64,000 nt of DNA, taken from positions 13,588-77,587 of the forward strand of contig JBAZSG010000002.1 in assembly GCA_041662585.1 (NCBI GenBank), in the 5' to 3' direction. The notes under the pieces are model-generated. The model worked only from the letters and a program-made list of their open reading frames with translations, searched no databases and was not told the DNA's origin. The stretch is from Patescibacteria group bacterium (GTDB taxonomy: Bacteria; Patescibacteriota; Patescibacteriia; UBA1558; GWA2-36-10). Positions 3,100 through 57,416 of the stretch are shown here, piece by piece (position 1 is the first letter of the stretch; each line of letters starts with the position of its first letter). Position numbers and translations under genes: made by a program.

Positions 3100-5505
<2,406 letters not shown>

Positions 5506-5556
5506 ATTTTCTTTATTTACCAGCGCCTTTGGCGTGGTCCCGCTTGGCGGGATAAA

Positions 5557-5865
5557 TTAAAATTTTAGTTTCTTGGCATATCTACCCAAAAATGGCATTT
5601 CCCAAAAACTACCATTAAGAGCATTGATTACTCCTAGTATTGCCAGTAGCATTACCAAAAGAGCCAAAGCCCAGCCAATAATTGGCACAGGAAAAAACCA
5701 ACCAAACAATAGCTCTACAGCAAACAAGAGCAAGCCTTGCTTGGCGTGGAATTGAGCTAATTTGGATTTTCTTTTAAATAGCAATGGTATTAGACATAGT
5801 GCCCAAACATAAGACAAGGCAGCCATGGTACCATTTGCTTCTAAATCTTTTTTATCTACTTCCAT
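5557..5865 (-). CDS. DUF4870-family small membrane protein
   Basis: 102 aa. ALSYVWALCLIPLLFKR...FHAKQGLLLF matches the DUF4870 pattern, with 2-3 transmembrane helices. Confidence 0.55.
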   Translation of the reverse strand: MEVDKKDLEANGTMAALSYVWALCLIPLLFKRKSKLAQFHAKQGLLLFAVELLFGWFFPVPIIGWALALLVMLLAILGVINALNGSFWEMPFLGRYAKKLKF

Positions 5866-5883
5866 ATATTATATTTTTATTAT

Positions 5884-6420
5884 TTATTTTAATTGTTTGG
5901 TATTTTTGGTTGCTTTGATAAACAAAATTCCTAAAAAAACAATAAGTAAAACTACCCAAATAGGCTCCACCAAAAAACTAAGCCAAGCCCAAACAGATTT
6001 TACATAAATGATTTTTATAATACCCAGTATTATTACTGCTGAAACAAAAGATACAATAGTAGTAATAAACATTTTGTCAGTAGCTAGTAGCCATTTGAGA
6101 CGAGCCAAAGCCAACCAAACTACTATAATTATAAATCGCCAAATCCAAGTAGCCCAAAATATAAACTGCTCTGACCAATATAGCTTGATTCCAATCTGTC
6201 TAAGAAATAGCTCGGTCAGCACAATAAAAACCAACAAAACAATAGATACTAGTGTCCAAGAAAAGCTTGGTTGGGCTTTTGGTTTTAGCTTTTGTACTTC
6301 TTTGACCAGCTCTTCTTCTATGTCATGAGAACCAAAATCAGCTACCCAAATCTCTGTTGATTCTTCAAACTCCAGACCACTATTTTGATCAATTGTATGT
6401 TTAGATTTTTTAAAAATCAT
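5884..6420 (-). CDS. Hypothetical membrane protein (soluble acidic N-terminus plus 4 transmembrane helices)
   Basis: ORF with hydrophobic helices. No recognisable motif. Confidence 0.4.
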   Translation of the reverse strand: MIFKKSKHTIDQNSGLEFEESTEIWVADFGSHDIEEELVKEVQKLKPKAQPSFSWTLVSIVLLVFIVLTELFLRQIGIKLYWSEQFIFWATWIWRFIIIVVWLALARLKWLLATDKMFITTIVSFVSAVIILGIIKIIYVKSVWAWLSFLVEPIWVVLLIVFLGILFIKATKNTKQLK

Positions 6421-6465
6421 AGACTTTTATTAATAACTATATTATACCAAAAAATAGCTCAAAAT

Positions 6466-6492
6466 AAAAACCCTAGCTTAAACTAGGGTTTT
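6466..6492. terminator. Rho-independent terminator (bidirectional)
   Basis: aaaaa-ccctag-cttaaa-ctaggg-tttt. Confidence 0.7.
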
Positions 6493-6510
6493 GATAAATA
6501 TACAATATCT

Positions 6511-8127
6511 TTAAATCACTTCGGCCAAAACAGTAACATTTTCTATACGAGTATTGTTGGTTTCGTTTGATTCAATGAGCTGATTAGATGCATCAGCTGT
6601 CATACTTAGTTCTTTGGTACTAGTAGCTGTAAAATAGCCGGTCCACATAAAAGAAAGTAGCTCATTGGGATCAAATGGCTCGGCGACTGACACAATAGGA
6701 GGTGTTGTGGTTGCAGTAGTTGTAAAATCTTCAAAAGAAGCTAAACCATTTAAAATCCCCGCGGTATTTGTCAGTGCCAGTGTCCCACTATTTTTAATAT
6801 ATACTGTAATGGTAGTTGTAGCATTTACAGTAGGACTAGCCAGATTTAGTACAATATCGCTTACTGTAATATCTGGTAATACTACTTCTTCGGCTATCAC
6901 TGTAAAATTTTCTGTGCGAGTATTATTTGTTTCGTTTGATTCAGCTAGAGTATTGACATAATCAGTGGTCACTGACAAAGCCTTGGTACTAGTAGCTGTA
7001 AAGTAACCTGTCCATACTATAGAAGCACTTTCGTTGGCTACTAAAGGATCAGTAGCAGAAACAGTAGAAGTGCTTACTGATGTGATATTAAAATCTTCTA
7101 AGGATTTTGAAACATCAAAAATTGGCTGATAATTTGTCAGTGAAGTGTTGCCAGAATTTTTGATATAAGCAGTAATAGTCGTTGTAGCATTGACGGTTGG
7201 AGTATTGGTGCCCAAAGCAATATCTGACAACATAATATCTATAGTGCTAGTAGTTGTATCATCATCGTCATCCTCGTCTTCGTCCTCATCATCATCACTA
7301 TCATCACCAGAACACCTGCCTCTGACATCACCATGTGCCAAATGAGCCTCTAAGGCACTGCGAGAAACCTTGATGGTTCTATTGGCCAATTCTGGTTTAT
7401 GACAAACAACTACTTTGTCATGACCTCTACCTATTTCAAAATCTTCCATATCATCATCTGATTCTACTAGTTCTCCGTTATCATATAAACTAGATAATCT
7501 GTGAAGTTTGATAATATTTTTTCTAATTAAATTTTGCAATCTTAAAACTTCAGCCACTATTTTTCTTCTTTGACCATTTTCTATCAAGAAATATTGTCCT
7601 GTCTCTTCCTCTTCCACTACACTTCCTTCTGGTAAATTGTCTGCTGACAATATACCATTTTTTATTTTGTAACTAACGGCAAATAAACCTGGATCAATAT
7701 CTAAAACAAGTTTGTGCCAAGTATCTCCATAAAAATTACGAGCTGTAGCTTCATCTGGTATGTAGGTCAATTCACCATCTTCGCCCACAGCGTAAACCTT
7801 GACTGTGTTACGATGAGTAATTAACCTTGTTCCAGCTTGGAAGGTCACTGTACCACCATCAGCAATATTATCTAAATCGCTCAAATCAACTTCTGCTACT
7901 TTTGAAAAATCATCATACCAAGTATTAAAAGTCTTTTGATCTGGGTAAATATATTTTTTACCGTCAACACCAATTTGATAGACAGCTGCTCCCTTTACTC
8001 CTTTTATCTTGAGTAAATCGCCAGCTTTATAGTTTGAACTGGCCTTTACACTAGAAGGTGTAAAAACCATACTCAAAGCAAAGATACTTAAAAAAAGTAT
8101 TTTGGTTATATTTTTTCTAATTTGCAT
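6511..8127 (-). CDS. Secreted protein with signal peptide, poly-Asp/Glu linker and two CARDB-like repeat domains
   Basis: The N-terminal signal peptide reads MQIRKNITKILFLSIFALSMVFTPSSVKA. A DDSDDDEDEDEDDDDD tract is present. There are two tandem repeats of about 110 aa carrying the SNETNNTR motif typical of CARDB domains, and the tandem repeat is also visible at nucleotide level (about 6540-6900 versus 6900-7260). Confidence 0.6.
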   Translation of the reverse strand: MQIRKNITKILFLSIFALSMVFTPSSVKASSNYKAGDLLKIKGVKGAAVYQIGVDGKKYIYPDQKTFNTWYDDFSKVAEVDLSDLDNIADGGTVTFQAGTRLITHRNTVKVYAVGEDGELTYIPDEATARNFYGDTWHKLVLDIDPGLFAVSYKIKNGILSADNLPEGSVVEEEETGQYFLIENGQRRKIVAEVLRLQNLIRKNIIKLHRLSSLYDNGELVESDDDMEDFEIGRGHDKVVVCHKPELANRTIKVSRSALEAHLAHGDVRGRCSGDDSDDDEDEDEDDDDDTTTSTIDIMLSDIALGTNTPTVNATTTITAYIKNSGNTSLTNYQPIFDVSKSLEDFNITSVSTSTVSATDPLVANESASIVWTGYFTATSTKALSVTTDYVNTLAESNETNNTRTENFTVIAEEVVLPDITVSDIVLNLASPTVNATTTITVYIKNSGTLALTNTAGILNGLASFEDFTTTATTTPPIVSVAEPFDPNELLSFMWTGYFTATSTKELSMTADASNQLIESNETNNTRIENVTVLAEVI

Positions 8128-46826: not shown

Positions 46827-48629
46827 ATGAAAAATATTGCCAAAAATTTCCTGATATTTTTTCTGATATTTGCAGCTATTATGACTGTTTTCAGTCTGTT
46901 TGATAATAGCAATAAAAATATTGAAGAAATATCCATAGCTAAATTGGTTCAAGAAATCAATAATGAAGAAGTAAAAAGCATTACTGTCAAAGGTAATGAT
47001 CTTGATATAATACTAAAAGACGAAAGTGAACAGTCTAGTAAAAAAGAAGTCACTGAATCTCTTAGTGAGGTCCTCAAAAACTACGATGTCTCTACTGAAA
47101 AAATAGCTAGTGTAGATATCAATATTGGTGATGAAACTAGCTCGAGTTTTTTACTTACTATCTTGCCATTTATTATTCCGGCTCTATTTATTATCGGACT
47201 TATTTGGTTTATGATGCGCCAAGTCCAAGGTGTCAACTCCAAAGCTATGACCTTTGGTCAGTCTGGAGCCAAAATTGCTGATCAAAAACAAAAAGTCACC
47301 TTCAAAGATGTGGCTGGTGCCAAAGAAGCCAAAGAAGATTTGGTAGAGATAGTAGACTTTCTAAAATACCCACAAAAATATGTATCTATGGGAGCCAAGA
47401 TTCCCAAAGGAGTACTACTGCTCGGCTCTCCTGGCACTGGTAAGACACTTTTAGCTAGAGCTACCTCTGGTGAAGCCAAGGTACCATTTTTTCATATATC
47501 AGGATCTGAATTTGTAGAAATGTTTGTCGGTGTCGGCGCTAGTCGCGTCCGAGATTTGTTTAAAAAAGCCAAAAAAGCTGCACCTTGTATTATCTTTATT
47601 GATGAAATAGATGCTGTTGGTCGCCAACGTGGTGCAGGACTAGGAGGATCTCATGACGAAAGAGAACAAACTCTAAACCAAATCTTGGTAGAAATGGATG
47701 GTTTTGACAATCAAACCAATATTATCATCCTAGCCGCCACCAATAGACCAGATGTCTTGGATCCTGCACTGCTTCGACCAGGACGTTTTGATAGACAAGT
47801 AGTCATAGACTTGCCAGATATAAAAGATCGCGAAGCGATACTCAAAATTCATGCCAACAAAAAACCACTAGAAAAAGAAGTAGATCTAAAACTAGTAGCT
47901 CAACGTACACCAGGCTTTTCTGGAGCTGACTTGGCCAATCTATTAAATGAAGCAGCTATAGTAGCTGCCAGAGCCAACAAAAAAACTATTAGTAGTCAAA
48001 CTGTACTTGATTCTATAGAAAGAGTCTTGCTAGGACGAGAGCGCAAAAGTCATATCTTGTCTGAAAAAGAAAAGAAAATCACCGCTTATCATGAAGCCGG
48101 ACACGCCTTGATAGCCCACATATTACCAAATGCTGATCCAGTGCACAAAGTGTCCATCATCTCTCGTGGACGAGCTGCAGGCTACACTATCAATCTACCA
48201 ACTGAAGACAAAAAAATGCAAAGCTATTCTGATTTTATAGATTCTATGGCTGTGCTACTTGGTGGTTTTGCTGCTGAAAAAATATTTTTTGGTGAAGTGA
48301 CTACTGGTGCTTCCAATGATTTACAAAGAGCTACGGCTACAGCTAGAAAAATAGTAACTCAATTTGGTATGGACGAAAAACTAGGACCTCGTACTTTTGG
48401 TCAAAAAGATGAGATGATTTTCCTAGGCAAAGAAATACACGAGCGTCGTGACTATAGTGAAAAAACTGCTCAGACTATTGATGAAGAAATATCAAATTAT
48501 ATACATGCCGCTTTGGCTACGGCTACTAAAACCATCAATGATAATAAAGCCAAGATGGAAAAAATAGTAGCGGTATTGGTAGAAAGAGAAACTATAGAAA
48601 AAGAAGAATTTGATAAATTATTGGCTTAA
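46827..48629 (+). CDS. ftsH: ATP-dependent zinc metalloprotease FtsH
   Basis: [18 protein letters not shown] (Walker A), [18 protein letters not shown] zinc site. N-terminal transmembrane helices. Confidence 0.95.
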
Positions 48630-48642
48630 AAATCTTTTAAAA

Positions 48643-48668
48643 ATCTCCCTTATCGGGAGGTTTTTTTA
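48643..48668 (+). terminator. Rho-independent terminator after ftsH
   Basis: tctccc-ttatc-gggagg-ttttttt. Confidence 0.7.
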
Positions 48669-48810
48669 TTTATTTACATATTGACTGACTTAAGCTAAAC
48701 TTTCAATAAGTGCGTAAGCATACTGTTATCCGCAATTTTACTCAGTTTTCATTTTTTCTTTTACTAAATGGTAGGTGGGAAAAATAATTTACTAATTAAT
48801 CAAAAAAATT

Positions 48811-49521
48811 ATGTCCATCGAAAAACCAAATTTTAATAAACCAGAATCTCCAGACGCAAAAAATGAATCTGAAGAAAAATATGAAAATGGCAACATTACA
48901 TTTTTTGCAGAGGGCGCTAAAAATAATGGTCAAATTGAAATAGCTAAAAATATTACCGAAACCATCGCACCATATATGGACAACAAAGTTCATGTTCAAT
49001 ACAAAAAAATAAAAGCAGAAAATCCTGGTTTTAATTCTAGATTAAATCCAAAATTTCGAGATGAAAATTATCACGATTCAATTACAATCAATTCTGATTA
49101 TCAATATCAAGATGAATTACCATTTATTTTAGCACACGAGCTGGGCCATTCCTTTGAAGAAAAATTAGAGCAAATTGTAAAAAATGATGAGGTAGAAACA
49201 CTACCAGTCGGAATGGACGATGAGTATGCAGATTTTTATGCTGATTTGATTGCGGTTTATATTCTTAGACCGGAATTATTAAAAAAACTTGAAGACATTC
49301 CAGCTGGTCAAAACACTTTATTGGCTATTCAAAAAATGTTTAGTGGCAATGATTTTACTGAATTAAGAACAAAATTAAATTTATTGCCCCACCCAAAGAC
49401 CACTATAGAGCCAGATAGCGAAGAAGAAATGGAAAGAAAAGCAAGACTTGATAAACTTTTTGAAAGGGTTTTTGACAAAATCAATGAGTATATTAATCAA
49501 AAATATACACGCGAAAATTAG
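48811..49521 (+). CDS. ImmA/IrrE-like HExxH metallopeptidase-domain protein
   Basis: LPFILAHELGHSFEE is followed about 35 aa later by DDEYADFYADLIAVYILRP, the E..A(N/D).FA..LL.P pattern characteristic of the COG2856 ImmA/IrrE family. Confidence 0.45.
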   Translation: MSIEKPNFNKPESPDAKNESEEKYENGNITFFAEGAKNNGQIEIAKNITETIAPYMDNKVHVQYKKIKAENPGFNSRLNPKFRDENYHDSITINSDYQYQDELPFILAHELGHSFEEKLEQIVKNDEVETLPVGMDDEYADFYADLIAVYILRPELLKKLEDIPAGQNTLLAIQKMFSGNDFTELRTKLNLLPHPKTTIEPDSEEEMERKARLDKLFERVFDKINEYINQKYTREN

Positions 49522-49595
49522 TTGGACCTATTCCTTTTCTTTCTTAATATTTAATAGCAACTATTTTATAAACTTTAATTACTAAGTTTACTACT

Positions 49596-50129
49596 ATGCA
49601 TAAAACAAAAAGATTCATTGTTTGGACAATTATTTTGACTCTTGCGCTAGCTGTTCTATTAGCAACACCCTTTACCAGCGAAGTGCAATGGAATGAAACT
49701 ATTGCTTACATAGTCATATTACTGGCAGTTGGTGGAGCTTATGAATTGTGGCAATGGTTAAAAACTCGTGACAAAATATATCATATCGCTTTTGGCCTTG
49801 GATTTATGGGAATATTACTCCTCGGCTGGATCAGTGGAGCCATTGGTATTATTGGCAGTGAAAACAACTCTGTAAACTTGCTGTATTGGCTAGTGCCATC
49901 TGTCGGACTTATCGGCTCTATACTTTCTCGCTTTAAACCACGTGGTATGGACCTTACGTTGTTTGCAATGGCTATTGTTCAATTTTTGGTTCCAGTAGTT
50001 GCATTGATTGTATCGCCAGAAGTCAGCTGGGGCAACGCCGGAGTTATTGGTGTGTTTGTTGTCAACTTCATTTTCGCAGCAATATTTACTGTATCGGCAT
50101 TACTGTTTCGCCATGCAAACACCAACTAA
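49596..50129 (+). CDS. Hypothetical membrane protein (4-5 transmembrane helices)
   Basis: ORF with hydrophobic helices only. Confidence 0.4.
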   Translation: MHKTKRFIVWTIILTLALAVLLATPFTSEVQWNETIAYIVILLAVGGAYELWQWLKTRDKIYHIAFGLGFMGILLLGWISGAIGIIGSENNSVNLLYWLVPSVGLIGSILSRFKPRGMDLTLFAMAIVQFLVPVVALIVSPEVSWGNAGVIGVFVVNFIFAAIFTVSALLFRHANTN

Positions 50130-50169
50130 AATAACAAAAATACGCTAAATTATATAAAAAAATAATTTT

Positions 50170-50637
50170 ATGAACTACAAACACACTCAAATTGGATATC
50201 TGATGATAATTATTACCTTGGCTATGCTGATATTTTTTGCTTGGCTTTATGCTACTAGTGCCGCTGAGCCTGAGTCAGTCGACTCTGGTACAAACTTGGC
50301 CGTTACTAGCGTTATGATATTAATTCTGTGTATTCTTGTTTCTTTTTGTTCACTAAAAGTAACTATTGATGAAAAATATTTGTATATCAAATTTGGCTAT
50401 GGTATTTATAAAAAAAAGTTTTTGCTCAGTGACATACTATCTACCAAAAACGTAAAAAATCATTGGTATTATGGCTGGGGTATACGGTTGTGGTTTTGGC
50501 CCAAGATGTGGATTTATAATATTTCTGGTTTTGACGCGATTGAAATTCAGATGAAGAACGGTAAAATCTACCGAATCGGAACAGATGAGCCAGAAAAGCT
50601 TGAAACTGCAATCAAAAAGAAAAAGAGCAGTTTATAG
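50170..50637 (+). CDS. Bacterial PH-domain (bPH_2/YdbS-like) membrane protein
   Basis: Two N-terminal transmembrane helices followed by a domain of about 90 aa: LKVTIDEKYLYIKFGYGIYKKKFLLSDI...IEIQMKNGKIYRIGTDEPEKL. The 3' end (KKKKSSL*) runs into repeat R1. Confidence 0.45.
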   Translation: MNYKHTQIGYLMIIITLAMLIFFAWLYATSAAEPESVDSGTNLAVTSVMILILCILVSFCSLKVTIDEKYLYIKFGYGIYKKKFLLSDILSTKNVKNHWYYGWGIRLWFWPKMWIYNISGFDAIEIQMKNGKIYRIGTDEPEKLETAIKKKKSSL

Positions 50638-50729
50638 ACATGCTCTTAGGGTCTGGGTTGCGTTTCAACGCAGGAACAATGACACCAACATTGGGATGGC
50701 AATCAATATGAACATAACTGTGTAAGACA
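50614..50729. repeat. Boundary repeat R1, copy 1 (terminator plus 3' coding end of the minus-strand membrane gene)
   Basis: About 90% identical to 52273-52388 (aaaaagaaaaagagcagtttatagacRtgctcttagggtctgggttgcgt.t.a.cgcaggaacaatgacaccaa...aacataactgtgtaagaca). Confidence 0.8.
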
Positions 50730-51243
50730 GGCGTAGGAGATTTTTATTAACCTCCCTCAAAATAATTCCGTAGCCAGTTTCCTTGTTGATGCCAAGTTCA
50801 TCATCAATACCAAGAAATAAACAAACGAAAAAAATGCCAAAGACAAAGACAACGACTACAGGGACATCCATGTGGCTAACAATAATGAAATATATGAAGG
50901 AAAAAACCATGACACTGTAAAAGGCAGCGGCAAAGGCAGATAAAAAACCAGAAGTAACCTCTTCTACCAGGCGATTCTTCAAAGCCAACCGACACATCTT
51001 CAAAGCCAAGAAAAAACAGCAAGGATACAGAGCTAAAAACGCTATCGCTACAGTAATGGCAATGGCATCATCCCAATTATCTGTCAAAGACAGGGCGATA
51101 AAATACACTGATAGCGTGACCACCGTGGCAATCAGTTGCCACTTCCCCAGTTTATCCCACCACAGAGGCAATTGGGGTCTAGCTGTTTTCTCCCACCACA
51201 AGAATAATGGGGACAATTGAAACGTCATCGTCAACCTCCTCAC
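50665..51243 (-). CDS. Polytopic membrane protein, paralog A1 (192 aa) with Trp-rich N-terminus
   Basis: MRRLTMTFQLSPLFLWWEKTARPQLPLWW... The N-terminal 60 aa and C-terminal 20 aa are near-identical to 52324-52854; the middle differs. A strong RBS (GGAGG) is present. Confidence 0.6.
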   Translation of the reverse strand: MRRLTMTFQLSPLFLWWEKTARPQLPLWWDKLGKWQLIATVVTLSVYFIALSLTDNWDDAIAITVAIAFLALYPCCFFLALKMCRLALKNRLVEEVTSGFLSAFAAAFYSVMVFSFIYFIIVSHMDVPVVVVFVFGIFFVCLFLGIDDELGINKETGYGIILREVNKNLLRLSYTVMFILIAIPMLVSLFLR

Positions 51244-51313
51244 ACAATATAATTAAAGTACAATTAATTTAATAAAACATATTAACACGCTGCTACACTA
51301 CTGTCAATATAAT
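51048..51313. repeat. Boundary repeat R2, copy 1 (5' coding end of the membrane gene plus promoter/5'UTR)
   Basis: Near-identical to about 52659-52920. The minus strand carries TTGACA (51307-51302) - 17 nt - TAATAT (51284-51279) and RBS GGAGG. Confidence 0.8.
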
Positions 51314-51353
51314 ACCTATAAAAAAACATTACCCCTAGTACTAATAATAAATT

Positions 51354-51905
51354 ATGAATAACGAAAATAATTTTTCTCAAAATATTGAACAGCCAGAACA
51401 ATGGCCCAAAAAAATTTCTGTCCAGTTTGATCAAAACCATTTTGACGGCCAAGAAATTGATAAAAAAGCCGTAGATTATCAAAAAGACTCTGGAAACAGC
51501 TGGTTACCAGGATCACTAAATAACTGGTGGAAAAAAATTTGTTTAGAGAACGAGCCAGAAGTTTCTGCTGAAGAACTAGGAGAAATTATTTATTATTTGA
51601 TAGAAGTAGCCAGAAATGCTATAGAAAAAGTCGGCAGTGGTGAAATCGAGGTTATTTTTGATAAAAATAAAATTACCTTTGTGGTAACTGATCAAGGAGT
51701 GGGATTTGAAAATCCACTCCAACAAATCAAACCCAAACACGGCTTATATGAAGTGCGTGGTTATGCTGATGAGTTTACAATTGAAACCAATGGAAAAAAA
51801 TACACCAAAATACCCAATAGCTTAAATCTTGATCAATCGGAAGAAACCGATGTCATACAAGGTTCTCGTATAACTTTTACAAAAAATTATGATGAGAAAA
51901 AATAG
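51354..51905 (+). CDS. GHKL/HATPase_c-like ATP-binding protein (RsbW/SpoIIAB-type serine-kinase-like)
   Basis: EIIYYLIEVARNAIEKVGSGEIEVIF...ITFVVTDQGVGF: N-box and G1-box-like pattern of the histidine-kinase-like ATPase fold. 183 aa. Confidence 0.45.
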   Translation: MNNENNFSQNIEQPEQWPKKISVQFDQNHFDGQEIDKKAVDYQKDSGNSWLPGSLNNWWKKICLENEPEVSAEELGEIIYYLIEVARNAIEKVGSGEIEVIFDKNKITFVVTDQGVGFENPLQQIKPKHGLYEVRGYADEFTIETNGKKYTKIPNSLNLDQSEETDVIQGSRITFTKNYDEKK

Positions 51906-51925
51906 CTAAATATTATTTTATCATT

Positions 51926-52210
51926 ATGAAACATCAAAATATAGTCCGTATTGCTATCATTGTAGGGTTGATTTTACTCGTACCTCTGATAGCTATGCAA
52001 TTTACAGAAGAAGTAAACTGGAGTTTAACAGACTTTGTTGTTATGGGTGCACTCCTATTTGGTACTGGTCTTGGCATTAACTTTGCCTTAAACAAACTTT
52101 CCAATCCAGAATATCGAGTTATCGTTGTTACTATTATCGTGCTAATTTTTTTGTTGATTTGGGTGGAACTGGCAGTTGGAATATTTAATACACCATTTGC
52201 CGGAAGCTAA
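51926..52210 (+). CDS. Small membrane protein (94 aa, 3 transmembrane helices)
   Basis: ORF with hydrophobic helices. It is followed by repeat R3. Confidence 0.4.
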   Translation: MKHQNIVRIAIIVGLILLVPLIAMQFTEEVNWSLTDFVVMGALLFGTGLGINFALNKLSNPEYRVIVVTIIVLIFLLIWVELAVGIFNTPFAGS

Positions 52211-52211
52211 T

Positions 52212-52250
52212 ATAATTAAATAAATTTTTTAATTTAAAATATAAACACCG
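52212..52250. repeat. Boundary repeat R3, copy 1 (taaataaattttttaatttaaaatataaacacc)
   Basis: About 90% identical to 53863-53900, in each case immediately after the last plus-strand gene of a unit. Confidence 0.7.
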
Positions 52251-52272
52251 TAGGCGATATTCCATTTTAGAT

Positions 52273-52388
52273 AAAAAGAAAAAGAGCAGTTTATAGACGT
52301 GCTCTTAGGGTCTGGGTTGCGTCTCAGCGCAGGAACAATGACACCAATATTGGTATTGAGATTGACATGAACATAACTGTGTAAGACA
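52273..52388. repeat. Boundary repeat R1, copy 2
   Basis: See R1 copy 1. It retains about 25 nt matching the 3' end of the 50170-50637 gene, although that gene is absent from this unit. Confidence 0.8.
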
Positions 52389-52854
52389 ATCTCAGAAGGT
52401 TTCTATCAATCTCACTCGCAATCATTCCATAGCTAGTGGCGTCTCCGCTAAGACCCGTAAAAATGCCCTCGCTGTAAATAACCACAATAAGAAAAATGGA
52501 TAGAATGACCAAAATGACATCAATACCTTTATAAATGGCTCGCCCAATATACAAAACAATCGCGACATTGCAAAAGACAACAAAAAAGACAGAGAAAGAA
52601 CTCAAAACATTGCCCCTCCAGAAGGCAAAACAAATATCCATAGAAAAACCCACTATCGCTGCCGTAATGCCAATGGCATACCACCAATTGTCTGTCAAAG
52701 ACAGACTTATAAAAAATCCGAGTAGCGTGACCACTATGGCAATCAGTTGCCACTTACCCAACTTAGCCCACCACAGAGGCAATTGAGGCCTAGCTGTTTT
52801 CTCCCACCACAAGAATAATGGGGACAATTGAAATGTCATCGTCAACCTCCTCAT
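52324..52854 (-). CDS. Polytopic membrane protein, paralog A2 (176 aa)
   Basis: Same N-terminus (MRRLTMTFQLSPLFLWWEKTARPQLPLWWAKLGKWQLIA) and C-terminus (NLLRLSYTVMF...VSLFLR) as A1, with a divergent core. Confidence 0.6.
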   Translation of the reverse strand: MRRLTMTFQLSPLFLWWEKTARPQLPLWWAKLGKWQLIAIVVTLLGFFISLSLTDNWWYAIGITAAIVGFSMDICFAFWRGNVLSSFSVFFVVFCNVAIVLYIGRAIYKGIDVILVILSIFLIVVIYSEGIFTGLSGDATSYGMIASEIDRNLLRLSYTVMFMSISIPILVSLFLR

Positions 52855-52920
52855 ACAATATAATTAAAGTACTATTAATTTAATAAAACATATTAACACG
52901 CTGCTACACTACTGTCAATG
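52659..52920. repeat. Boundary repeat R2, copy 2 (includes minus-strand promoter TTGACA-17-TAATAT at 52918-52890)
   Basis: See R2 copy 1. Confidence 0.8.
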
Positions 52921-52942
52921 AGACACAAACTTAAACACCTTT

Positions 52943-53506
52943 ATGAAACAATTGTTTATAATGCTAATCGGTTTTTCTAGATCAGGTAAAACTACTTTAG
53001 CTAAAAAAATAATAGAAAATATAAAAGATTTGGTATTAATAGATTCTGACTCTATTCATTTGTTTTTAAATAATACTTATCCTTTATTTCAAGATAATGA
53101 TACTATAGAAGGCCAGTCTTACGAAATTAGACAAAAAACTACCAAAGCAATACAAGAGGCTTTGATTTCTACTCTACTTAAAGATGGACACTCTATTTTA
53201 CTAGATGCAAACAATGGTAAAAAAGAAGTGCGAGAAACAATATTAAAAACTGTTAAAAATATTAATCCCGAAATACAAACTATTTTACTAAGACATAAAA
53301 TTGATGAAAAAATATTATATAAAAATATTAAAAAAGCTGACCAAATAAAAGGTGGCTATACTTGGAAAGATTTATATGAAAAAATACAAAAACCCAACTT
53401 TGATGAAGCAACTAAAGATGAAACCAATTACCTTTTGATTCATACAAATAATACTGCCGATATAATTAACGAAATAAAAAATATAAGTACAAAGCATCGC
53501 GTATAA
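52943..53506 (+). CDS. Small P-loop NTPase/kinase (AAA_33 / zeta-toxin-like fold)
   Basis: MLIGFSRSGKTTLAKKII (Walker A), LIDSDSIH, LLDANN. 187 aa. It occupies the position held by the HATPase gene in the preceding unit. Confidence 0.5.
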   Translation: MKQLFIMLIGFSRSGKTTLAKKIIENIKDLVLIDSDSIHLFLNNTYPLFQDNDTIEGQSYEIRQKTTKAIQEALISTLLKDGHSILLDANNGKKEVRETILKTVKNINPEIQTILLRHKIDEKILYKNIKKADQIKGGYTWKDLYEKIQKPNFDEATKDETNYLLIHTNNTADIINEIKNISTKHRV

Positions 53507-53532
53507 GTAAAAATAACCTAATTCTAAAACCA

Positions 53533-53835
53533 ATGAAAAAAAATATTTTTTTAACAACCATTATAATTTTTATAGCCGTGCTATGTGTATATTATTTTTG
53601 GTTTATGCAAAAAAACGAACTAGTGACAAAAGAAGGCATCCTGCTGGGCTCTAAAGGAAACACATTAATAGTCGATGATGTTTTTGTAGAAATTAGCAAT
53701 GAAGATTATAAACAATATCTAAACAAGAGGGTTAAGGTTGAAGGTTATTTGTCTGAACCAAAACCCTGTCCACCCAATTTACAATGTCAAATATCTCCAA
53801 TTATGACTGTCAAATCAATTGAAATAATTGAATAG
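53533..53835 (+). CDS. Small exported/membrane-anchored protein (100 aa)
   Basis: N-terminal transmembrane helix or signal anchor, then a soluble domain with 3 Cys. Confidence 0.4.
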   Translation: MKKNIFLTTIIIFIAVLCVYYFWFMQKNELVTKEGILLGSKGNTLIVDDVFVEISNEDYKQYLNKRVKVEGYLSEPKPCPPNLQCQISPIMTVKSIEIIE

Positions 53836-53862
53836 CCTATGGAAGATAACAAAAAAATCTAT

Positions 53863-53900
53863 ATAACTAAATAAATTTTTTAATTTAAATTATAAAAACC
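53863..53900. repeat. Boundary repeat R3, copy 2
   Basis: See R3 copy 1. Confidence 0.7.
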
Positions 53901-53930
53901 ACCCCTCGACTTACACTCAGGGTGGTTTTT
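53895..53930. terminator. Bidirectional rho-independent terminator
   Basis: aaaaaccaccc-tcgacttacactc-agggtggtttttt. Confidence 0.8.
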
Positions 53931-53949
53931 TAAAAACTTTCTTTGCTGT

Positions 53950-54267
53950 CTATACAAATCGACTAGCAAAAAATATAGCTGTAGCCAGACCGATAAACCA
54001 AAGCAGTGCCGACGCTACTGATTGGCCAAATTTTTTGCGCCGACTAGACACTTCGCTTCTACCAAGAACTCTTTTGTTCTTTGAGGCAAAACTAGTGCCT
54101 TCACCACTGTTTAGTGTGAATATATGAAGTGGTGGTTTTTTGAGTCTTTCTTGTTGGCCATTATACTTTAATGGTCTTTTGGTTTTTATGGCTACCAACA
54201 CAAACAAAGCCAAAAGGCCAAAAATAATGGCTATAGCTTGAAAGTCCATACCTGCAAAAAACTTCAT
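53950..54267 (-). CDS. Small 2-transmembrane-helix membrane protein (105 aa)
   Basis: ORF with two hydrophobic helices and a basic central loop. About 330 bp of unusually GC-rich noncoding DNA lies upstream. Confidence 0.4.
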   Translation of the reverse strand: MKFFAGMDFQAIAIIFGLLALFVLVAIKTKRPLKYNGQQERLKKPPLHIFTLNSGEGTSFASKNKRVLGRSEVSSRRKKFGQSVASALLWFIGLATAIFFASRFV

Positions 54268-54606
54268 AAACGTTCCTTTCTTTTTTGCTGGTTAGTGGTA
54301 TGAAAAAGAACTTAAGTTACAAAAAAATACCTCTCCAGGCATTTTTGTAAATCAAGCTCATAATATGAGTTTTATCTACACAACGCCGGTTACGCTACTA
54401 GCTCCAAACTGTCCAAGCGTCCAAATACAGACAGTCCTTCATCGCCTCATTGAATGATATTTAATGTAATCAATAATAACTTAACATAAATATTTTATTT
54501 TGTAAATATTATAAATTTAATGCCCAAAACCAATACTTTTGTTTTTTTATTCATTTTGTTGTATAATATACTTATCTAAAAAATAAAAATCAATTAAAAT
54601 AAAATT

Positions 54607-55566
54607 ATGTTTTATAGAAAAGTTTATCCTAAAGCTTGGCAATTGGTCAAAAAAAATCCAGCTATTTGGTTTTTTGGACTATTTGCATCACTTCTAGGAT
54701 TTTATGAAATAAAAATCCTATTCAATTTCTCCGATAAATTTCCAGATTTTATCTCGGCCAACATTATATCTTGGATAGATATATTCGTGGCTTTTTCAAC
54801 TATTAATTTTGGTTGGAGCAATCTACCAGATGTTTTGGCTCTGTTTGGATTATTTATTCTATTTTCTGCTCTTACTATTTTGACTGTTTCTTCACAAGCC
54901 GCTCTGACTCGTGCTGCTTATTTCAAAGATAAAAAAACTATCAATGAATCATTGGGTCTACAACTAAACAAAGGTATTGATAAATTCTGGCCTGTATTTG
55001 GTCTAAATATTATCAATTCATTAATTGGCTATTTCTTTGTTACTTTGGTGCTAGTACCAATAATATATTTTCTGTCCAGTACTAGTGATTGGCCAATTTA
55101 TATAATATTGGGCTTGTTTACTTTTTTTGTACTTATGCCTTTGGTGGTGGTTATTTCTTTTGTTACTAGATATGGCATAGCTTATATAGTTATAAAAAAT
55201 CAAAAATTTACCGAAGCTTTTGTCAATTCTTGGCTATTATTCAAATTAAATTGGATAATCACCATAGAAAACGCTGTTACTTTGTTGGCCATGACTTTTA
55301 TAGCTTTGGTGCTTATGGTTAGCTCTATGATCTTCATATTTGTACCCTTTATTATTATTGCCAAAATTATACCAGTATTAAGTTTTATGTTTATGCTTAT
55401 TGGCTTCTTCTTAATAGCTGTAATATTAATATTTGGCACATCTATATATGCTTCTTTCTACAATGTAGTTTGGGGCACTGTTTTCTTGGAATTGATAGCT
55501 CCGGGCAAAAGTCATAGCAAGATACACCGAATAGTTCATAAACATTTACCAGGTCTTCTCAAATAA
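54607..55566 (+). CDS. Hypothetical polytopic membrane protein (319 aa)
   Basis: Seven or more transmembrane helices. No motif assigned. Confidence 0.45.
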   Translation: MFYRKVYPKAWQLVKKNPAIWFFGLFASLLGFYEIKILFNFSDKFPDFISANIISWIDIFVAFSTINFGWSNLPDVLALFGLFILFSALTILTVSSQAALTRAAYFKDKKTINESLGLQLNKGIDKFWPVFGLNIINSLIGYFFVTLVLVPIIYFLSSTSDWPIYIILGLFTFFVLMPLVVVISFVTRYGIAYIVIKNQKFTEAFVNSWLLFKLNWIITIENAVTLLAMTFIALVLMVSSMIFIFVPFIIIAKIIPVLSFMFMLIGFFLIAVILIFGTSIYASFYNVVWGTVFLELIAPGKSHSKIHRIVHKHLPGLLK

Positions 55567-55700
55567 AAATTAATTTATTCCAAAAAACCATTCTATTTAG
55601 AATGGTTTTTTATTTATACTATAAAATTGACTTAAAGAGTATCAATAAAGTATAATTATCATAGTTATTAATCCACTATAAGTGGAATAAATAAAAAAAT

Positions 55701-57416
55701 ATGGTTGATATATCAAAGGACAGTAAAAGTCAAAAATTGACTGATAAGTTATCTGAAATTGAACTAAAAGAAAAAGAACAACGTGTACAGGCCCAAGCTG
55801 ATGCTCTTGGTATTTCTTATATCAATTTGAAAAAATTTCCAATTTCTCAAGAAGCTCTAAAAATTATTGATGCTGAACAAGCTGAAGCTTTACAAACTAT
55901 TTGTTTTTTATATACTGGTGAAGAAATGCGCTTTGCATCTCTCAATCCCAATAACCCTCAAGTAGTCAACTTGGCCAAAGAGCTAGCTGAAAAATACCAT
56001 GCTAGCACCAAAACCTATCTTGTTTCGGAAGAGAGCTTTGATACTGCTTTTGCGATCTATAAAAAAATACCTCAAATTATTACCGTAGAAGGTGTGTCTA
56101 TTTCTATTGAAGATATAAATAAATTTGATAAAAAACTTACTACTTTCAATGATCTCAATAAGCTTATTCAAGAAACTGAGCTTACAGAAACTTTGAATAT
56201 AGTCATAGCTGCTGGACTCAAATTTGCTGCTTCCGATATTCATATTGAAACTGAAGAAAGTATAGTAAAAATACGCCTACGAGTCGATGGAATATTACAT
56301 GAAGTAGCTACTCTCAAAAAAGACACTTGGCCAAAAATCAGCTCTCGCATAAAACTATTGTCTGGATTAAAATTAAATATTGGCAACAAACCACAAGATG
56401 GTCGATTTACTATCCATCTTAATAAAGAAACAGTTGACGTCAGGGTTTCTTCTATCCCCTCTGTCTATGGCGAAAGTATTGTCATGAGACTTTTGGTAGC
56501 TTCAGCAGTGGGACTAGAATTTGAACATCTAGGTTTTAAGGGAAAGTCTTTTAATGTATTGGCTGAGGAAATGAAAAAACCAAATGGCATGATTATCACC
56601 ACTGGTCCAACTGGTTCTGGTAAAACTACTACTCTCTATGCCATATTAAACAAGCTCAATAATGCTGACACAAAAATCATTACCCTAGAAGACCCTATAG
56701 AATATAAACTACCTGGTATAGTGCAGAGCCAAGTAGATAATACTGATTCTATAGAGCAAGAAGATGTACAAACTGGAGAAATAAAAAGAAAAGCCACCTA
56801 TACCTTTGCTAGGGGTTTACGGGCTATACTACGCCAAGATCCAGACATAGTAATGGTTGGTGAAATTCGTGACCTAGAAACAGCTGAAACTGCTATAAAC
56901 GCTGCTTTGACTGGTCATTTGATGCTATCTACTATCCATACCAACTCCGCTGCTGGTACAATCCCTAGACTTTTATCTATGGGTGTACAGCCTTTTTTAT
57001 TGGCTCCAGCTCTCAATGCTGTGATTGGACAAAGACTGGCTAGAAAATTGTGCTCCCATTGTAAAATTGAAGACACTCAAGTCGACAATGCTACTATGAC
57101 TATCATTTTAAATGCCTTAAATGAAATAAGCCCCCAATCTGGCTTTAAACCAGACTTGAATAATTTAAAATTTTATACAGCTAAAGGTTGTGATAAGTGC
57201 CAAGGTATAGGTTATAAGGGAAGAGTCGGTATTTATGAAGTCATGACCATGAGTCCGGAAATAGAAAAAGTAATACTATCAGGCCAAGCCTCTGAATATG
57301 AGTTGGAAAAAATAGCTGTAGCTGATGGTATGATGACTATGTTTCAAGATGGACTTATCAAAGCTCTAGAGGGTATCACTTCTGTAGCTGAAATATTTGA
57401 TAGAGTAAAAGATTAA
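55701..57416 (+). CDS. pilB: Type IV pilus / type II secretion assembly ATPase (GspE/PilB family)
   Basis: N-terminal GSPII_E_N-like domain, Walker A ITTGPTGSGKTTTLYA, Asp box, His box, tetra-Cys motif CSHC...CDKC. Confidence 0.85.
   Translation: MVDISKDSKSQKLTDKLSEIELKEKEQRVQAQADALGISYINLKKFPISQEALKIIDAEQAEALQTICFLYTGEEMRFASLNPNNPQVVNLAKELAEKYHASTKTYLVSEESFDTAFAIYKKIPQIITVEGVSISIEDINKFDKKLTTFNDLNKLIQETELTETLNIVIAAGLKFAASDIHIETEESIVKIRLRVDGILHEVATLKKDTWPKISSRIKLLSGLKLNIGNKPQDGRFTIHLNKETVDVRVSSIPSVYGESIVMRLLVASAVGLEFEHLGFKGKSFNVLAEEMKKPNGMIITTGPTGSGKTTTLYAILNKLNNADTKIITLEDPIEYKLPGIVQSQVDNTDSIEQEDVQTGEIKRKATYTFARGLRAILRQDPDIVMVGEIRDLETAETAINAALTGHLMLSTIHTNSAAGTIPRLLSMGVQPFLLAPALNAVIGQRLARKLCSHCKIEDTQVDNATMTIILNALNEISPQSGFKPDLNNLKFYTAKGCDKCQGIGYKGRVGIYEVMTMSPEIEKVILSGQASEYELEKIAVADGMMTMFQDGLIKALEGITSVAEIFDRVKD

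Follow-up and report, generated by a model that had tools for sequence, protein, structure and literature searches.

A mosaic repeat in a Patescibacteria genome is probably a two-copy local duplication of a lineage-specific membrane-protein gene among unrelated neighbours

How does a stretch of bacterial DNA come to carry the same short blocks twice, in the same order, while the genes lying between them are unrelated? This question is raised by a locus at positions 48811-54267 of a 64,000-nucleotide (nt) stretch of contig JBAZSG010000002.1, from the metagenome-assembled genome (MAG) of a Patescibacteria group bacterium (the whole stretch, 64 kb in length, is referred to below as the window), in which three repeated blocks, R1, R2 and R3, recur in two adjacent units. 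An earlier reading of the sequence, referred to below as the original prediction, took the blocks for conserved boundary modules of a cassette-like array framing unrelated cargo genes, of a kind resembling defence or toxin/immunity arrays. We favour a different explanation, to which we assign a probability of roughly 60%, namely that the locus is a two-copy local duplication of a lineage-specific gene for a small membrane protein (its copies are termed memA and memB here), situated among unrelated neighbours, and is neither a cassette nor a defence system.

The repeats themselves are real, lie where the original prediction had placed them, and are far beyond chance, with two copies of each of the long R1, R2 and R3 sub-blocks in the window against 0.00 expected from shuffled sequences. 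The R2 copies (51009-51308 and 52620-52919) are 86% identical, rising to ~97% across 51170-51307, while those of R1 (50614-50778 and 52273-52437) are 84% identical, with 48 of 50 positions shared in the non-coding part 3' of the mem stop codon, and those of R3 (52210-52249 and 53861-53900) match at 37 of 40 positions. Recurrence in one order, in one orientation and with a near-constant period of ~1.65 kb (start-to-start spacings of 1611 nt for R2, 1659 nt for R1 and 1651 nt for R3) is as expected of a segmental duplication; however, homology does not extend throughout the unit, and in each unit ~900 nt of cargo and ~300 nt of the mem core cannot be matched to the other unit, either as DNA or as protein. 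For these parts, a later replacement or a heterologous origin has to be assumed. The earlier argument that simple, uniform duplication followed by drift does not account for this mosaic is supported.

What, then, are the conserved blocks? R1 is the terminator end, and R2 the promoter end, of a small membrane-protein gene that lies on the minus strand and is present twice. Read along the mem strand, the repeat begins at the -35 hexamer, runs through the leader, a GGAGG ribosome-binding site, the ATG and the coding sequence (CDS), and ends right after the T-run of the terminator. In the upstream flank, the 64 nt between the start of the open reading frame (ORF) and the -35 hexamer contain 1 mismatch, and beyond the -35 there is no similarity; in the downstream flank, the 50 nt that follow the stop codon and take in the whole U-tract contain 2 mismatches, after which identity collapses to background. 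Because the limits of the repeat are functional limits (the -35 and the U-tract), R1 and R2 are parts of one duplicated transcription unit, and the division into three boundary modules that had been proposed is not upheld.

The memA CDS (50665-51228, minus strand) encodes 187 amino acids (aa) from the ATG that follows GGAGG, with an open frame reaching 51243. Its promoter, leader and ribosome-binding site occupy 51229-51307, the non-coding part of R2 copy 1 (-35 TTGACA at 51307-51302, -10 TAATAT at 51284-51279, with a TG extension), and its 3' untranslated region and intrinsic terminator occupy 50614-50664, the non-coding part of R1 copy 1, with a 7-bp stem and an 11-nt loop followed by TTTTTCTTTTT. 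Its paralogue memB (52324-52839, minus strand) encodes 171 aa according to the NCBI annotation of the MAG (P0002), within an ORF that extends to 52854; the corresponding promoter, leader and ribosome-binding site lie at 52840-52918 (-35 at 52918-52913, -10 at 52895-52890; the non-coding part of R2 copy 2), and the 3' untranslated region and terminator at 52273-52323 (the non-coding part of R1 copy 2). A promoter scan recovered the TTGACA-17-TAATAT promoter claimed for both R2 copies and added the TG extension, and direct reading of the sequence places GGAGG 6 nt 5' of the ATG, as had been reported. Each copy possesses a complete promoter and terminator and is hence self-contained and monocistronic.

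Two further claims concerning R1 do not survive this delimitation. Its hairpin was described as a bidirectional terminator, yet the T-run is found on the minus strand only, making it the membrane gene's own terminator. Moreover, 24 nt of R1 copy 2 were described as the retained tail of a "bPH" gene otherwise absent from unit 2; these nucleotides are the terminator U-tract and stem, into which the 155-aa plus-strand ORF of unit 1 happens to read (its last 8 codons overlap the memA terminator at 50614-50637), and the argument for modular recombination that was built on this tail consequently falls.

MemA, a small membrane protein with several helices, carries the motif LWWDKLGKWQ, and its AF2 model, although all-helical, is of low confidence (pLDDT 64.6, pTM 0.46) and too weak for a fold search. 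MemA and MemB are 50% identical overall (BLASTP E 3e-53), and nearly all of this identity falls within the N-terminal ~60 and C-terminal ~30 residues, with the ends ~95% identical and the core ~20% identical and gapped. The reported dissimilarity of the two gene cores is thereby confirmed, and the question becomes whether conserved ends and a variable centre are peculiar to this pair.

Profile searches and alignments indicate that MemA and MemB are members of a tiny, rare and previously undescribed family from Patescibacteria. A word-indexed search of 5.8 billion protein clusters returned only MemA and MemB themselves, recorded there as hypothetical proteins from a Patescibacteria MAG, whereas an exhaustive hidden Markov model (HMM) search of 1.84 billion representatives recovered six weak but genuine distant relatives of 97-178 aa; close relatives were absent from both collections, as well as from our genome and metagenome scans. 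These scans yielded distant, single-copy relatives at four genome loci and three metagenome loci (two of the three duplicating genome loci) and at none in viral sequences; all are from Patescibacteria, with one copy per locus outside the window. Family members share a [WYF]WxK[LM]G[KR]WQ motif followed by a hydrophobic helix, an Ala/Val-rich hydrophobic core of variable length, and a C-terminal helix with the pattern "S..aEF..I.lP". MemA and MemB carry the invariant residues W29, K31, G33, W35, Q36, S173, F178 and I181, while both have Met in place of the Glu that is conserved in the C-terminal "EF". No Pfam or NCBIfam model matches the mem proteins, and literature searches on this WWxKLGKWQ family returned nothing relevant.

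The relatives, which belong to other genera, display the same profile as the pair in the window. Among four loci that we compared (L007, L009, L010 and L012), identity is 33-38% for the mem proteins and 57-61% for their CDSs, whereas the 50 nt following the stop codon are 70-85% identical and include a nearly invariant hairpin, GAGACCCGGGTTAGAATAGGGTCTC, with even its loop conserved. The leaders share a 22-nt block, AGGCCAATTTCAGGCCATTGGT, located downstream of a TTGACA promoter whose -10 is extended (conserved leader elements at 1040-1091 in L007, 7925-7979 in L009, 7945-7997 in L010 and 5940-5991 in L012), and in all four the conservation ends at the -35 and after the terminator. The terminator of the window copies aligns with those of the relatives (7-bp stem, 11-nt loop) and shows three compensatory pairs. 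Across the family, the promoter, leader, terminator and protein termini are thus better conserved than the coding core, and because the relatives show conserved edges and a variable centre, the R1/R2 pattern is the normal conservation profile of a mem gene. No Rfam family covers the mem flanks in the window locus or the related loci. Conservation of the leader and terminator could reflect RNA-level regulation or a protein-binding site.

The genes that surround mem differ from genome to genome. They include murI (L006), a glycosyltransferase gene and RNase P RNA (L007), glyA and ribosomal genes (L008), mraZ, rsmH and a penicillin-binding protein gene (L010), and a methyltransferase-like gene and an integrase (L012); the mem genes of L005, L009 and L012 lie near an integrase, a methyltransferase-like gene or a HicB-like gene. 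L009 (JBAZKN010000004) is collinear with the window across 40.9-48.6 kb (gyrA, S1, FtsH; the FtsH proteins are 83% identical). This collinearity stops exactly at the FtsH terminator. Directly after FtsH, L009 carries a single mem gene, convergent with FtsH as in the window, and then an integrase and a diversity-generating retroelement (DGR); beyond FtsH there is no second mem copy and no kinase cargo. In the window, the ~6 kb located 3' of FtsH (48630-54600) consist of lineage-specific genes for small membrane or hypothetical proteins, and mem is the sole element common to the two genomes downstream of FtsH. Because L009 and the window differ here, the region downstream of FtsH varies between genera, and the comparison suggests a variable island at this position.

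In the DGR of L009 (4278-7862), the variable region sits at the 3' end of a 227-aa gene (4278-4961) and the template repeat near 5214-5405, while an Avd-like four-helix protein is encoded at 5394-5831 on the minus strand and the reverse transcriptase at 5737-6726. The tyrosine recombinase of this locus (6963-7862) has a very similar counterpart in L012 (7741-8607), 1.3 kb from the mem gene.

Divergence between memA and memB is unevenly distributed within their conserved parts. Codons 21-40 contain five synonymous and two non-synonymous changes and the last 26 codons eight synonymous and four non-synonymous changes, while the non-coding flanks have diverged by only 2-4%. Since synonymous changes are frequent in the coding ends, these ends are old, older than the flanks, and under purifying selection. 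The regulatory flanks, for their part, either are under very strong constraint or were homogenised by gene conversion, two processes that two sequences cannot separate.

The plus-strand genes between and beyond the mem copies are unrelated to one another, as originally claimed (the two cargo sets show no mutual similarity by BLASTP or tblastn), and the folds that had been guessed for their kinase-like members are correct. The 183-aa protein of unit 1 (51354-51905) resembles the anti-sigma-factor serine kinases SpoIIAB and RsbW; its N-box ARNAIE and G1 box DQGVGF, together with an AF2 model (pLDDT 76) whose best PDB matches are SpoIIAB (E 6.5e-5, target TM 0.61-0.65), place it among GHKL proteins with a Bergerat fold. 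It differs from SpoIIAB and RsbW in having ~65 extra N-terminal residues and a HATPase_c_2 score of 18.7 bits, under the Pfam cut-off, and neither a STAS partner nor a sigma factor was seen among the 10 locus proteins scanned. Its few homologues adjoin NUDIX, GT2 or restriction-modification genes, one of them being truncated and beside a restriction-modification pair, and homology around them is limited to the gene itself. One homologue, P0004, is 62% identical. The second gene of unit 1 (51926-52210, plus strand) encodes a 94-aa membrane protein with three helices, to which each half of a 177-aa membrane protein encoded at 49596-50129 bears a weak resemblance (E ~0.05); the latter looks internally duplicated, its unit resembling the 94-aa protein, and the motif L.P..A....EV.W after the first helix is common to all three units. 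The 94-aa protein may, on this similarity, be a local paralogue and not imported cargo.

In unit 2, the 187-aa protein (52943-53506, plus strand) is an AAA_33/KTI12-like P-loop kinase with the Walker A motif GFSRSGKT, which scores 35.4 bits against AAA_33 (PF13671; gathering cut-off 27 bits) and matches a PHROGs polynucleotide kinase (E 1.7e-9). Homologues that are 50-81% identical occur in other Patescibacteria, and on three inspected contigs these lie beside an APH-type kinase, a HAD phosphatase, MscL, tRNA synthetases or an HD hydrolase, with neither a mem gene nor a relative of the 100-aa protein next to them. This 100-aa protein, encoded by the second gene of unit 2 (53533-53835, plus strand), has one N-terminal hydrophobic helix, and no relatives were detected in the loci examined. 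Where a cargo homologue is present at those loci, mem genes, R2 and R3 are missing. PDB sequence searches with the kinase and a GHKL profile gave nothing useful. The unit-2 cargo (52943-53900) is AT-rich, with 27% G+C in 53001-54000 against ~33-37% around it, a composition compatible with later acquisition.

R3 stands apart from the mem unit. Both copies are intergenic; the first is an AT-rich 40-nt sequence with palindromic 5-bp ends (TAAAT-N10-ATTTA), 23 nt from the memB terminator, and R3 with its flanks shows no stable fold relative to shuffled sequences (z +0.97 and +0.08). The second copy overlaps the start of a strong, G+C-rich hairpin (53894-53936) with T-runs on both sides and a DNA fold of -12.1 kcal/mol (z -3.4), which terminates both the plus-strand operon and a convergent 105-aa gene and forms the right edge of the repeat structure.

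Taken together, these data can be accommodated as follows. memA and memB are paralogous, self-contained, monocistronic units for a small multi-helix membrane protein, in which R1 and R2 stay alike because the same parts (the strong extended -10 promoter, the leader, helix 1 and the N-terminal WWxKLGKWQ that goes with it, the terminator hairpin and the C-terminal helix) are conserved family-wide, leaving the central hydrophobic core free to vary in sequence and length. Gene conversion between these nearby direct repeats is probably a further reason why the flanks are almost identical. The two plus-strand operons, one comprising the SpoIIAB-like GHKL kinase and the 94-aa membrane protein and the other the AAA_33 kinase and the 100-aa protein, would be unrelated neighbours rather than the payloads of a cassette. 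R3 and the constant period indicate one segmental event of ~1.65 kb, presumably an old one, which may have been either a tandem duplication, with later loss or replacement of cargo and divergence of the mem core, or the integration of a diverged homologous unit by recombination at R3. The direct repeats are long enough that RecA-dependent loss or gain of a unit could still occur, although no variant with a unit lost or gained was seen. Recombination at R1, R2 and R3 may have taken place, but it is not needed to explain the conserved blocks.

Several observations nevertheless weigh against a local duplication among unrelated neighbours. Flank divergence (2-4%) is far below that at synonymous sites only a few codons away, and because constraint alone would need selection on almost every base, conversion or recent recombination was probably involved. 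A local duplication does not firmly account for R3 or for the nearly equal lengths of the two cargo segments (901 and 941 nt), each encoding a protein of ~185 aa followed by one of ~95-100 aa, nor for the presence of two different kinase operons at equivalent positions. Furthermore, the kinase-homologue contigs that we inspected do not include the closest homologues (P0014 and P0015, 81% identity, on contigs of 1.1-1.6 kb), and the comparison downstream of FtsH draws upon a single syntenic relative, L009, whose contig ends ~8 kb beyond the mem gene.

A rival reading is an array of exchangeable cassettes. Its units, each composed of mem, a divergent small operon and R3, would be exchanged among strains, and acquired or dropped, through homologous recombination at R1, R2 and R3; a 1.65-kb circle might, for instance, integrate at R3 and create a heterologous tandem. 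Young and old segments do alternate along the locus (flanks 2-7% diverged, core and cargo unalignable), R3 direct repeats bracket 52250-53900 exactly, the cargo of unit 2 has a G+C content of 27% against ~35%, mem units occur in differing contexts across genomes, and the unitig graph of the assembly is also compatible with a circle. However, the young segments are the regulatory elements, as constraint predicts, neither a third unit nor an alternative cargo was found in any of the collections searched, close relatives of memA and memB turned up neither in the protein collections nor in the genome and metagenome scans, and the cargo homologues found elsewhere lack a mem gene and the R blocks; the syntenic L009 holds a single mem gene. 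A recombinase is also lacking, with no tyrosine recombinase in the window (tblastn with a Patescibacteria query, best E 4.1) and no integrase among the locus proteins (Pfam scan). We consequently regard an exchangeable array as rather unlikely: of the cassette reading, the repeat architecture and the unrelated cargo stand, while boundary modules and cassette exchange are unproven and mostly unnecessary. Less likely again is that the mem unit is a portable module whose conserved ends and R3 serve as recombinase-free homology arms, allowing whole units, each pairing a hypervariable membrane protein with an adjacent small-kinase operon, to be gained, lost or exchanged after DNA uptake; if true, an episymbiotic bacterium would here have a simple cassette system with which to vary its envelope.

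An anti-phage or toxin/immunity array, with kinase-like effectors and variable membrane proteins as immunity or sensor partners, had been inferred from the gene content, and finds an echo in some weak matches and in the truncated GHKL homologue beside a restriction-modification pair. Yet none of the 10 locus proteins gave a significant PADLOC match (best mad8, E 3.9e-4, 18 bits, and capP, E 5.3e-3, the latter for the 236-aa protein at the left edge; no hits for the others), and PHROGs returned only generic kinase and metalloprotease matches, with no system-level match. The Zeta_toxin score of the 187-aa kinase is 22.2 bits against a cut-off of 22.3, below that for AAA_33, and although AAA_33 membership and a Walker A motif are shared with zeta toxins and KTI12, this kinase is shorter than zeta toxins and has no epsilon-type partner, being flanked by the divergent mem gene upstream and the membrane-anchored 100-aa protein downstream. 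The metabolic and housekeeping surroundings of the kinase homologues, the NUDIX and GT2 genes beside GHKL homologues, and the several mem relatives located beside housekeeping genes, all point away from defence, a reading that is unsupported and that we consider improbable; neither phage nor plasmid collections (blastn) contain a DNA match. Still more improbable is a recent tandem duplication whose mem core was diversified by a DGR-type targeted mutator. The core is indeed hypervariable across the family, and the mem gene of L009 has a DGR 2 kb away; however, the variable region of this DGR sits in another gene, the 64-kb window contains no reverse transcriptase, the mem cores are unalignable and carry indels, unlike the A-specific substitution pattern of DGR targets, and the unrelated cargo would be left unexplained.

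An assembly artefact, that is a chimeric or mis-joined repeat, which the original prediction had named as a potential refutation, is equally unlikely. Logan unitigs from run SRR6484324 tile 47502-51208, 51279-52819 and 52890-55665 at 100% identity, and a second run contributes a unitig at 52890-53839. The breaks lie inside R2 only, so that unit order rests on scaffolding over a repeat of ~300 nt, yet the two repeat copies differ at many positions, the three tiling unitigs come from an independent assembly and include the junction from cargo 1 through R3 and R1 to memB, and the genes of the locus are also present on long contigs (160-188 kb) from several sources.

How does a duplicated mem gene compare with described systems? 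In the vsp, vpma and vlp families of Mycoplasma, lipoproteins are switched by a dedicated Xer-type recombinase acting at a specific site, with one active promoter. As in those families, the 5' non-coding and N-terminal coding parts of mem are near-identical and the rest diverges, but each mem copy has its own promoter and terminator, so that no single promoter moves between copies, and the proteins lack a lipobox, the 3' end is conserved too, and the window contains no recombinase. The recurrence of a short sequence (R3) between unrelated genes recalls integron arrays, from which the locus differs in having no IntI-type integrase in the window, no attC-like fold in R3, and genes that are neither co-oriented nor promoterless, the large repeats being a gene's own ends. 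The closest known analogues are clusters of tandem paralogues with mosaic conservation, such as the lpl cluster of Staphylococcus aureus, in which tandem paralogues show a mosaic of conserved and variable segments (Tsuru and Kobayashi 2008, PMC2568036). Here as there, sharply conserved blocks adjoin highly variable stretches, the conserved unit and the ORF have different limits, and the conserved blocks are potential substrates for homologous recombination. In lpl, however, the conserved block is central and the ends vary, whereas in mem the ends and flanks are conserved and the core varies; moreover, the mem locus has two copies only, with unrelated operons interleaved.

As it stands, the locus is probably an ordinary duplication in a bacterium with a small genome. 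A general implication is that the appearance of a conserved boundary with variable cargo can arise from a duplicated gene with constrained ends and regulatory flanks. A by-product is a previously undescribed membrane-protein family of Patescibacteria, the regulatory ends of which are more conserved than the protein itself and the location of which differs in each genome. A large share of the unexplained genes in Patescibacteria episymbionts encode small hypothetical membrane proteins, and should the pattern seen in this family reflect RNA-level regulation or mobility of the module, it would be worth targeted study.

Two labels previously given to genes on the left of the repeats require re-evaluation. 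The 155-aa protein, described as "bPH_2", has a sub-threshold match only (bPH_4, E 0.016), and the "ImmA-like" label of the 236-aa protein (48811-49521) is weakly supported, the matches being to Peptidase_M48 (E 0.034) and a PHROGs metallo-protease (E 4.5e-6); this protein, which is also the source of the capP match, carries a HELGH zinc-peptidase motif. Full-text literature searches returned no paper linking the cyclic di-GMP-II (c-di-GMP-II) riboswitch class to Patescibacteria or the candidate phyla radiation (CPR). To the right of the repeats, a full-length c-di-GMP-II aptamer occurs at 54375-54458 on the minus strand (RF01786, 68.4 bits against a gathering cut-off of 53.5, E 3e-13), upstream of the gene for a 105-aa two-helix membrane protein (53950-54267, minus strand) and near a type IV pilus-type ATPase gene (T2SSE, 55701-57416).

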